NCBI GenBank assembly: GCA_022710645.1
Contig: JAKLGL010000001.1
Location: 167,426 to 231,425, forward strand
Reading direction: 5' to 3'
Length of the DNA stretch: 64,000 bases
Origin: Patescibacteria group bacterium
GTDB lineage: Bacteria > Patescibacteriota > Patescibacteriia > Magasanikbacterales > GWA2-37-8
Below, in pieces: positions 14,924-15,049 of this stretch; position 1 is the first letter of the stretch, and every line of letters starts with the position of its first letter. The notes under the pieces are model-generated. The model saw only the letters and a program-made list of their open reading frames with translations. It made no database searches and was not told the origin of the DNA. The position numbers and the translations under genes were made by a program.

Positions 14924-15049
14924 AATCCCCCTTTAATTTATAAAAGCTCTAATTTCTAAAATCTAAGCTCTAAACAAAAATATTTTAATATTCAATATTT
15001 AATATTGTTTAGGATTTAGGAATTAGAATTTCGAATTTAATTTAGTATA
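14924..15049. repeat. AT-rich palindromic intergenic repeat (CTAAACAA..ATATTnAATATT..TTGTTTAG family)
   Basis: gctctaaacaaaaatattttaatattcaatatttaatattgtttaggatttagg; related copies at 19373-19451, 20750-20899 and 22262-22300. Confidence 0.75.

Follow-up and report, generated by a model that had tools for sequence, protein, structure and literature searches.

Inverted heptanucleotide arrays in three intergenic spacers of a Magasanikbacterales genome: probable miniature members of an intervening-sequence-like cassette family

What are the long AT-rich palindromes found between genes of a Patescibacteria group bacterium (Magasanikbacterales; GenBank GCA_022710645.1, contig JAKLGL010000001.1, positions 167,426 to 231,425), and is it their pairing that has been conserved? 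The window studied here is this whole stretch of 64,000 nt. A reading made from the letters alone (the sequence-only reading) had reported four related intergenic sites with near-perfect palindromes of up to ~70 nt, and had suggested elements like MITEs (transposable elements in miniature form, with inverted repeats), regulator binding sites or replication-related structures. We find three such sites. They are probably miniature members, lacking an open reading frame (ORF), of a family of selfish cassettes that resemble the intervening sequences (IVSs) of 23S rRNA and end in arrays of 7-nt units (heptads). Compared loci are labelled with L-numbers (L006, L139 and so on).

Three of the four sites are real and mutually related, far above chance. 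Each is matched over its full length by R1, a covariance model of the family described below:

14945..15037, no strand assigned: copy 1, short ORF-less form, in the ligA-ppsA spacer; R1 E 2.9e-8; separated by 12 nt from the stop codon of ligA (15050-15052) and by 21 nt, which include a GGGGG Shine-Dalgarno sequence, from the ATG of ppsA (14923).
19340..19450, no strand assigned: copy 2, in the spacer between pilM and a response-regulator gene; R1 E 6.6e-10; separated by 1 nt from the stop codon of pilM (19452-19454) and by 13 nt from the response-regulator ATG at 19327.
20764..20881, no strand assigned: copy 3, in the cysS leader; R1 E 8e-12; 58-nt arms, 71% complementary; begins 11 nt past the -10 box and stops 18 nt short of the ATG at 20900.

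The fourth reported site (22262-22300) is not a family member. It has no palindrome (DNA fold z -1.5) and no R1 match, and consists of a single array whose unit is that of the element's inner module; a similar AATATTG array stands at the equivalent place, after cysS, in the relative L006:

22266..22295, plus strand: one-armed heptad array, ATATTAA/AATATTR x4.3, directly 3' of the cysS stop codon, found by Tandem Repeats Finder (TRF).

The window copies are 93-118 nt long, contain no ORF and share one layout of four heptads (YCTAAAT), an inner AATATT/CAAAT module, a loop and the mirror image of these. Their palindromes are imperfect, with inverted arms of 35-60 nt that a repeat finder scores as 70-71% complementary, and TAGGATTTAGG / CTAAATCCTAA, taken by the sequence-only reading for flanking direct repeats, are in fact heptad units that compose the arms. 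TRF reports period-7 arrays at all three sites (CTAAATC, AATATTC/G, TTTAGGA/TTAGAAA; 2.9-4.6 copies). Read in the sense of the downstream gene, copies 2 and 3 are 87% identical over 119 nt and differ by one 7-nt indel; copy 1 is ~72% identical to both. AATATTGTTTAG at no more than one mismatch has 7 matches in the window against 1.36 expected, a number reached by 0 of 100 shuffles. Counted as a loose 11-mer, the arm motif shows no enrichment over the window (17 matches against 21 expected). A profile hidden Markov model (HMM) gives the three sites 31-56 bits, the top of 30 shuffled windows 11 bits, and 900 shuffles of the sites themselves a maximum of 5.3 bits. Spread of the copies through the genome was not seen: the three lie inside 6 kb and none was found in the other ~77 kb of the 83 kb examined.

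The same element is present in other bacteria. Metagenome contigs were scanned with ATATTGTTTAGNNNTTAG, which matched at least 120 stretches; ~40% of the matches listed (46-49 of 122) show the same architecture and the rest are chance matches. The same exact pattern applied to viral contigs as a control yielded ~2-4 family members among the 120 matches listed, and on that count a phage origin was set aside. R1 was built from an alignment of 35 metagenome copies (A2) that includes none from this genome, and in the window it finds only the three sites, with nothing further below E=0.4. It also matches the L011 cysS leader and the L006 ppsA-ligA spacer, and has no match in ~1 Mb of control cysS loci from non-Patescibacteria phyla. 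No Rfam family covers the elements, whether gathering thresholds are applied to the window or E<=1 to 10 family loci.

Across 718 kb of metagenome loci there are 111 copies, and they frequently cluster: L172 has 3 within 2 kb and L115 has 3 within 3 kb. Best protein matches place the hosts in at least three phyla, namely Candidatus Magasanikbacteria/Patescibacteria, Dehalococcoidia and Nitrospirota, and GC is 17-37% in the elements and 31-57% in the loci that contain them. Nearly all copies are intergenic (73/75), at a median of 15-19 nt from both neighbouring genes, some directly against the Shine-Dalgarno sequence of the next gene. Most lie between co-directional genes (30/33 by a strict definition of neighbours, 32/39 by a looser one), with orientation relative to transcription split 15:15. 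The genes that follow are unrelated (ppsA, response regulator, cysS, nifS, pilC, CCA-adding enzyme, glycosyltransferases). L102 and L206 carry the element upstream of nifS, where L208 lacks it, and complex indels distinguish filled from empty sites.

A full copy has the form AAATY-(CTAANNN)x4-CTAAAC-inner module-(loop or ORF)-inner module-GTTTAG-(NNNTTAG)x4-RATTT. Its ends are sharp, falling between AAATY and CTAA on the left and between TTAG and RATTT on the right, and the flanks are random in composition; length is ~95-120 nt in the window, with a family median of ~120 nt. Four units were counted in 72 of 105 arms, three in 30 and more than four in 3. Units follow one another in a strict 7-nt phase, each with a near-invariant CTAA and 2-3 variable bases at its end. 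Because 7 is not a multiple of 3, every arm carries TAA or TAG in all three frames of both strands, with which the intergenic position of 73 of the 75 copies is consistent.

Such arrays might have no family identity and simply be low-complexity sequence left by replication slippage in AT-rich spacers. The spacers of this genome do hold many further short tandem arrays (9-mers, other 7-mers), and the difference of exactly one 7-nt unit between copies 2 and 3 is what slippage would leave. Against this, shuffles score far lower, the same sharp-ended sequence of ~120 nt recurs in genomes whose GC reaches 57%, arms have a fixed number of four units, and true members are far scarcer among the listed viral matches than among the metagenome ones. 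For the three sites slippage is refuted and we give it almost no weight as a general account; it may apply to the fourth site.

Some family copies are themselves built up further. In L127 (~370-490, minus strand) the right arm and junction of a copy are tandemly duplicated at least 4 times as a 32-nt unit; arms are therefore able to amplify as blocks. The copies at 906-1040, 2154-2283 and 2614-2739 of L172, and copies in L200 and L204, lie within an extra outer G+C-rich inverted repeat, e.g. gtgcgcagcacaagg ... cctcgcgttgtgcgc, so that the loop of another palindrome contains the heptad element. Other small palindromes are in turn nested inside family copies in L108, L181 and L285.

A second account holds that the palindrome is an RNA hairpin selected for its use to the host, as a 5'-terminal or intercistronic mRNA stabiliser or processing site in the manner of repetitive extragenic palindromes and bacterial interspersed mosaic elements (REP/BIME) or of T7 RNase III sites. 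The window copies fold far more stably than shuffles, both as RNA (minimum free energy -16 to -40 kcal/mol, z -2.4 to -7.3) and as DNA (z -3.0 to -4.9). They have -10-like boxes 0-11 nt upstream, so that a transcript would begin at the hairpin, and the prevalence of co-directional spacers also suits this account. The pairing itself shows no sign of selection. On a hand-built structure of 36 pairs, 80.3% of alignment cells can pair against 81.8% after column shuffling, with zero compensatory changes and spacer positions mostly unpaired; the left arm of an element finds no better complement in its own right arm than in the arms of other elements (13.3 vs 14.0, p=0.89). Whole-heptad register shifts could mask some signal in both of these tests. 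Sense and antisense RNA fold equally well across the family (12 vs 18, p=0.73), and in the window the antisense strand is the better folder at all three sites. A bias of G:U over C:A on the transcribed strand, looked for as a sign of selection at the RNA level, was not found.

Since there are neither compensatory changes nor co-evolution of the arms, the symmetry reflects conserved end motifs and not a selected helix: each arm is conserved toward its own consensus, like transposon ends, and not toward its partner. Relatives also manage without the element, with cysS leaders of 25 nt in L007 and 45 nt in L012. The -10-like hexamers, found upstream of 38% of copies against 13% of random windows, are about as frequent on the gene side (32%); their enrichment is not specific to the upstream side, and a promoter in or beside the element was dropped as a diagnostic feature. 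A host-selected hairpin seems to us quite improbable.

Being long intergenic inverted repeats, two of the three just past the stop codon of a co-directional gene, the sites could also be intrinsic (perhaps bidirectional) terminators or attenuators at operon ends. The elements have no G+C-rich stem and no T-run, and a terminator scan that skips these sites finds classical terminators elsewhere; perfect terminator-like hairpins (45929-45979 and 50482-50531) occupy convergent spacers. A conserved cysS promoter lies upstream of copy 3, and the family is if anything rarer in convergent spacers. An absolute avoidance of such spacers, seen as 0/33 under the strict definition, was given up when it was lost against the true spacer background (p=0.13). 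Terminators are largely refuted and we hold the idea to be very unlikely.

The family also has a long form. A single-arm profile detected pairs of arms ~390 nt apart, and in L139, L143, L153 and L167 both arms were detected around an ORF of ~120 aa. For L194, which reaches the edge of its contig, and for L137 the profile detected a single arm; the other arm of L137 was recognised by eye, as were the variant CTAATTN / NAATTAG heptads on either side of a more divergent ORF in L101. Among six of these loci ORF identity is 53-70%, and the ORF of L101 is 39-44% identical to the others. The three ORFs that were scanned (L139, L143, L167) match PF05635, the 23S rRNA intervening-sequence protein, at E 1e-13 to 1e-17 and TIGR02436, the four helix bundle protein, at E 1e-18 to 1e-23, above the curated cut-offs; the closest solved structure is 2RLD. 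No rRNA genes are found near the long-form copies, which lie between protein-coding genes, and the possibility that they are true rRNA IVSs was ruled out on this ground.

The arms in the window align colinearly with those of the ORF-bearing copies, through ...CTAAATYCTAAACAATATC. Many short copies retain the start of the ORF (CAAATGACC / GGTCATTTG) in their inner modules, which is how a deletion derivative would be expected to look. With no PF05635 ORF inside, the window copies are classed here as miniature derivatives and not as full IVS-type members.

Four-helix-bundle genes are associated with inverted heptamer arrays beyond this family as well. One long-form ORF, compared with plasmids by tblastn, matched 16 records, mostly from cyanobacteria, plus Bacteroidota and one Chloroflexota. 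Inverted heptamer arrays flank both sides of 6 of 14 inspected genes by a strict automated test and of ~11 of 14 by eye, against a background of 0 of 507 positions. These arrays typically have 4.7 perfect units, e.g. (TAATTCG)4.7 ... (AATTACG)4.7. In 40 kb of the Nostoc plasmid pNFSY06, 10 of 12 period-7 arrays belong to two four-helix-bundle cassettes and three ORF-less inverted pairs. A literature search that reached few subscription journals found no paper containing the arm sequences, and found a link between S23p or four-helix-bundle proteins and heptamer arrays only in the Coxiella IVS paper cited below.

Several of the plasmid genes sit within operons of other function. In L337 (Anabaena cylindrica pANACY.01) and L347 (Nostoc TCL26-01) the four-helix-bundle gene lies between cas2 and cas1 on the opposite strand, flanked by AAGTAAA/CTTTTTA arrays, and in L346 (Pseudanabaena) it is immediately upstream of cas1. 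Others stand between helicase and methylase genes (L336, L338, L345) or between the subunits of a resistance-nodulation-division (RND) pump (L343).

The closest known system is the 23S rRNA IVS. That of Coxiella has a 28-bp terminal stem and an S23p ORF and is excised by RNase III; tandem heptamers precede its ORF start in numbers that vary among strains, and a mobile origin has long been suspected (PMC4990558). The IVSs of Coxiella and Leptospira (PMC4990558) and the present family are alike in having terminal inverted repeats (in Coxiella the stem of 28 bp, here arms of four 7-nt units each), a PF05635 ORF of ~120 aa between the arms (here in the long forms only), tandem heptamers next to the ORF start (here four per arm, and also around the plasmid-borne four-helix-bundle genes), and a sporadic distribution with a suspected selfish or mobile origin. 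They differ in that the window copies occupy the ligA-ppsA, pilM-response regulator and pilM-cysS spacers and not helix 25 or 45 of 23S rRNA, carry no ORF, and have arms that pair in short blocks and not as a near-perfect stem.

The heptads could alternatively be cis-regulatory sites of the host, with a conserved RNA- or DNA-binding protein reading YCTAAAT/ATTTAGR before start codons to tune translation or transcription. An analogous proposal for the TAACTGA repeats names S1, cold-shock proteins and CsrA as candidate proteins (PMC4679880). The near-invariant CTAA core with 2-3 free spacer bases in a strict 7-nt phase is what a binding site might look like, copies end a median of 15-19 nt from the next start codon, sometimes against the Shine-Dalgarno sequence, and the cysS leader carries the element both in the window and in L011, whose CysS is 61% identical. 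Regulation does not readily account for downstream genes that are unrelated, for random orientation, for copies that come and go among close relatives, for the same sequence in three phyla at any host GC, or for ORF-bearing forms that share the ends. Of the suggestion of regulator binding sites, then, the conserved cores with varying spacers speak for it and the remaining points against it, and we think a regulatory role unlikely. A reading of the UAG-N4 repeats as sites for HutP- or TRAP-like proteins was dropped because of the random orientation and the presence of arrays on both strands.

Among the three options of the sequence-only reading, a MITE-like element fits best: this is a discrete, sharp-ended, ORF-less, dispersed multi-copy family with longer members that carry a gene. 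Replication-related structures found no support. Like MITEs, the elements are small, ORF-less, multi-copy and intergenic with inverted ends (AAATYCTAA...TTAGRATTT). Metagenome contigs have up to 3 copies per 2-3 kb, this genome 3 in 83 kb. Unlike MITEs, the elements show no target-site duplication; a parent-like long form exists, and it encodes no recognised transposase. The elements also lack the GTAG/GGAG-headed, G+C-rich stem of 20-40 nt and the RAYT gene of REP/BIME elements, having 17-37% GC, and unlike both MITEs and REPs their ends are arrays of four heptads and not a single inverted repeat.

Several observations weigh against an IVS-like mobile cassette as the source of the window copies. 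There are just three here, within 6 kb, and local duplication or gene conversion would suffice to make them without transposition. They do not have the ATGACC start remnant that is common in short copies. In the 83 kb examined here neither a transposase nor a gene for a four-helix-bundle protein turned up: tblastn finds no four-helix-bundle gene in the window, and Pfam tables of the window and its flanks, in which many ORFs have no Pfam match, show no Y1-transposase or other transposase family. The four-helix-bundle protein is not known to act in mobility or as a transposase. No target-site duplication, and no target motif, was seen at the boundaries of ~58 copies, and the deficit in convergent spacers is only a trend (2/44 vs 37/282, p=0.13). 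Orthologous copies in L006 diverge strongly in unit sequence, which rapid turnover in place fits as well as replacement insertions. The arms pair as blocks of 4-5 bp with internal loops of 2-3 nt and may be a poor RNase III substrate, and transcription of the elements and their cleavage by that enzyme are steps that we infer.

With these points counted, we still regard membership in an IVS-like selfish cassette family as the probable explanation of the three sites. What the analysis establishes is that the sites belong to the family, how its members are built and distributed, their tie to the ORF-bearing form, the lack of selection on arm pairing, and the wider association of four-helix-bundle genes with inverted heptamer arrays. 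Such an element would spread as a selfish or near-neutral dispersed repeat, its arms conserved, in the way of transposon ends, as recognition arrays whose partner, acting in trans, is possibly the four-helix-bundle protein. Its confinement to spacers would follow from the TAA or TAG in every frame of both strands of each arm. The window copies would be transcribed as the 5' part of the ppsA, response-regulator and cysS leaders, where pairing of the arms could give an imperfect hairpin (roughly -16 to -40 kcal/mol). IVS stems suggest by analogy that RNase III may cut this hairpin, and we propose that the insert is tolerated because of such cleavage; as a side effect, mRNA stability or processing could change.

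This link to four-helix-bundle genes may bear on the origin of bacterial 7-base repeat arrays in general. The over-representation of 7-nt repeats in bacteria has been noted since 1990-2007, with G-quadruplexes, translational regulators and genome plasticity among the proposals and no accepted explanation, and the origin and mobility of 23S rRNA IVSs and the role of the S23p ORF are questions that are here tied to heptamer repeats. A palindrome in Magasanikbacteria leaders leads to a cross-phylum family, from there to long copies bearing PF05635, and on to the same layout in cyanobacteria, Bacteroidota and Chloroflexota. We tentatively suggest, as a possibility that we would not yet bet on, that heptanucleotide arrays across bacteria are largely the ends, or the ORF-less miniatures, of one class of S23p (PF05635) cassettes, of which the 23S IVSs are members that landed in rRNA, and that the protein binds four-heptad arrays and mediates their spread or maintenance. 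The class so conceived would take in the short tandemly repeated repetitive (STRR) sequences and GGGGAYT repeats of cyanobacteria, the TAACTGA repeats of Bacteroidota and Beggiatoaceae, perhaps the GGGAATC pairs of Xanthomonas, and the AT-rich family described here. Binding of the four-helix-bundle protein to four-heptad arrays is a testable idea.

With intergenic heptamer repeats of these kinds the present family shares tandem 7-nt units that lie outside genes but close to their ends, and a preference for about four units. STRR sequences, whose description is credited to Mazel et al. in 1990, are said to be tandem heptamers present in many copies in the non-coding DNA of heterocystous cyanobacteria. 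They differ from the present family in having been described as tandem arrays and not as discrete palindromic cassettes; on pNFSY06, 10 of 12 arrays are cassette arms or parts of ORF-less pairs.

The G-rich heptamers GGGAATC of Xanthomonas and GGGGAYT of Nostoc often form convergent (inverted) pairs, of which there are 70-75 per Xanthomonas genome (Rehm et al. 2015, PMC4692102). Like the elements here they are intergenic, preferably between co-directional ORFs and near start or stop codons, and theirs are mostly transcribed. The present family, unlike theirs, is AT-rich with no G-tracts in CTAAATY / AATATTN, and has an extra inner module and sharp conserved ends. Because its units lack G-tracts, a G-quadruplex cannot explain the preference for four units here, and that explanation is weakened more widely. 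In PMC4692102 the heptamers showed no association with mobile elements, and four-helix-bundle genes go unmentioned; a Planktothrix four-helix-bundle gene is flanked by AATCCCC, the complement of the Nostoc-type GGGGATT.

TAACTGA direct repeats are known from Beggiatoaceae, cyanobacteria and Bacteroidetes (MacGregor 2015, PMC4679880). They share with this family heptamers upstream of start codons (there 2-6 units, at a distance of a few nucleotides), stops in all frames, no functional pattern among the downstream genes, and a cross-phylum distribution that suggests horizontal spread, so far without a mechanism. They differ in being direct and strongly gene-oriented, where ours are inverted pairs with no orientation bias, and PMC4679880 makes no mention of four-helix-bundle proteins. 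A four-helix-bundle gene of Chondrinema (Bacteroidota) is flanked by units of the TAACTGA/AACTGTA type, a resemblance that hints at a link between TAACTGA repeats and four-helix-bundle cassettes.

For annotation, these elements flag small inserts in leaders and operon spacers, including those of CRISPR adaptation and restriction-modification operons, and they may create mRNA processing sites. In the window the genes and candidate promoters around the three copies are as follows:

12356..14923, minus strand: ppsA (phosphoenolpyruvate synthase/pyruvate phosphate dikinase family), Pfam PF01326, PF00391 and PF02896; downstream of copy 1.
15044..15072, minus strand: promoter-like TTCTCA-17-(TG)aTATACT from a promoter scan with TG extension; overlaps the ligA end, 5-6 nt upstream of copy 1.
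18947..19327, minus strand: response-regulator receiver gene, Pfam PF00072; downstream of copy 2.
19451..19456, minus strand: -10-like TATAAA, read from the sequence (weak evidence); abuts copy 2 and overlaps the pilM stop codon.
20724..20752, plus strand: predicted cysS promoter TTGAAA-17-TAAAAT from the promoter scan; upstream of copy 3.
20900..22264, plus strand: cysS, Pfam PF01406, NCBI name cysteine--tRNA ligase; downstream of copy 3.

The placement at operon boundaries around pilus genes given by the sequence-only reading is loosely right: all three copies lie between a -10-like box and the start codon of ppsA, the response-regulator gene or cysS, and the link to the pilus looks incidental. 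For the response-regulator gene the start used is that of NCBI (19327); the JGI alternative at 19372 would run into an arm of copy 2. The TTGAAA-17-TAAAAT motif is kept upstream of cysS in L006, L007, L008, L011 and L012, with or without an insert in the leader, and probably acts as the cysS promoter; the site at 15044..15072 is likewise a putative promoter, and -10-like hexamers are commonplace in AT-rich spacers.

The cysS leaders of relatives range from 25 to 140 nt and their inserts differ: L006, L008 and L010 have other small palindromes there, L011 a member of the present family. In L006, which has the same gene order and a CysS 79% identical, nearly every spacer has heptad arrays, with different units; the ligA-peptidase spacer has an array there and none in the window, and one spacer bears an array where the window has just 15 nt. 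NCBI assigns the CysS and LigA proteins to Candidatus Magasanikbacteria. The region, on a contig of a metagenome-assembled genome, occurs in several samples of anaerobic-digester type, and five public contigs are 100% identical over up to 21 kb, so that strain polymorphism is uninformative.

The window and its relatives hold further small repeats. A second class of spacer palindromes is made of 9-nt units (AAAGTYNNN ... NNNRACTTT, ~4 per arm), with inverted pairs at 7074-7165, 9089-9161, 20602-20678 and 36267-36334 and single arms at 23146-23188 and at 28904-28927 plus ~28985-28998; the arms at 28904-29000 flank another hairpin. Arrays of the forward unit AAAGTY number 6 in the window, 1 in L006, 1 in L200 and 0 in 2.1 Mb of control loci, and the pilM leader carries an array of 9-nt units both in the window and in L011. 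These palindromes may mark the termini of some other cassette family. Heptad arrays that are inverted but built of other units occur at 8556-8668 (TAATTTT/AAAATTA), directly upstream of the transfer-messenger RNA (tmRNA) gene (8677-9069), and at 44918-45014 (AATTTTC/GAAAATT); a 9-mer array follows the tmRNA 3' end.

A hairpin TGTCATCCTGAACGCAGTGAAGGATC...GATTCTTCG...CTCAGAATGACA at 22302-22386 looks like another widespread small palindromic repeat; the same type is found in the L008 cysS leader and in unrelated contigs, and is nested in the loops of family copies in L108 and L285. The palindrome GCCTGCCGGCAGGCAGG stands in gene leaders of two Patescibacteria relatives, L006 (~8200-8230) and L016 (~9880-9900), and in L006 that leader is the one of cysS, where the window has the heptad element. 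Beside tRNA genes (11192-11265, minus strand; 29832-29902, plus strand) is a ~135-nt inverted repeat, 85% identical between 11018-11154 and 29915-30050, of which the first copy is bracketed by 34-nt hairpins at 10965-10998 and 11160-11193 which form an inverted repeat with 91% complementarity. Inside the minus-strand ORF 33742-34716 lies a tandem array of an 8-nt unit (ATCTTGTA x5.5), at 33943-33986.

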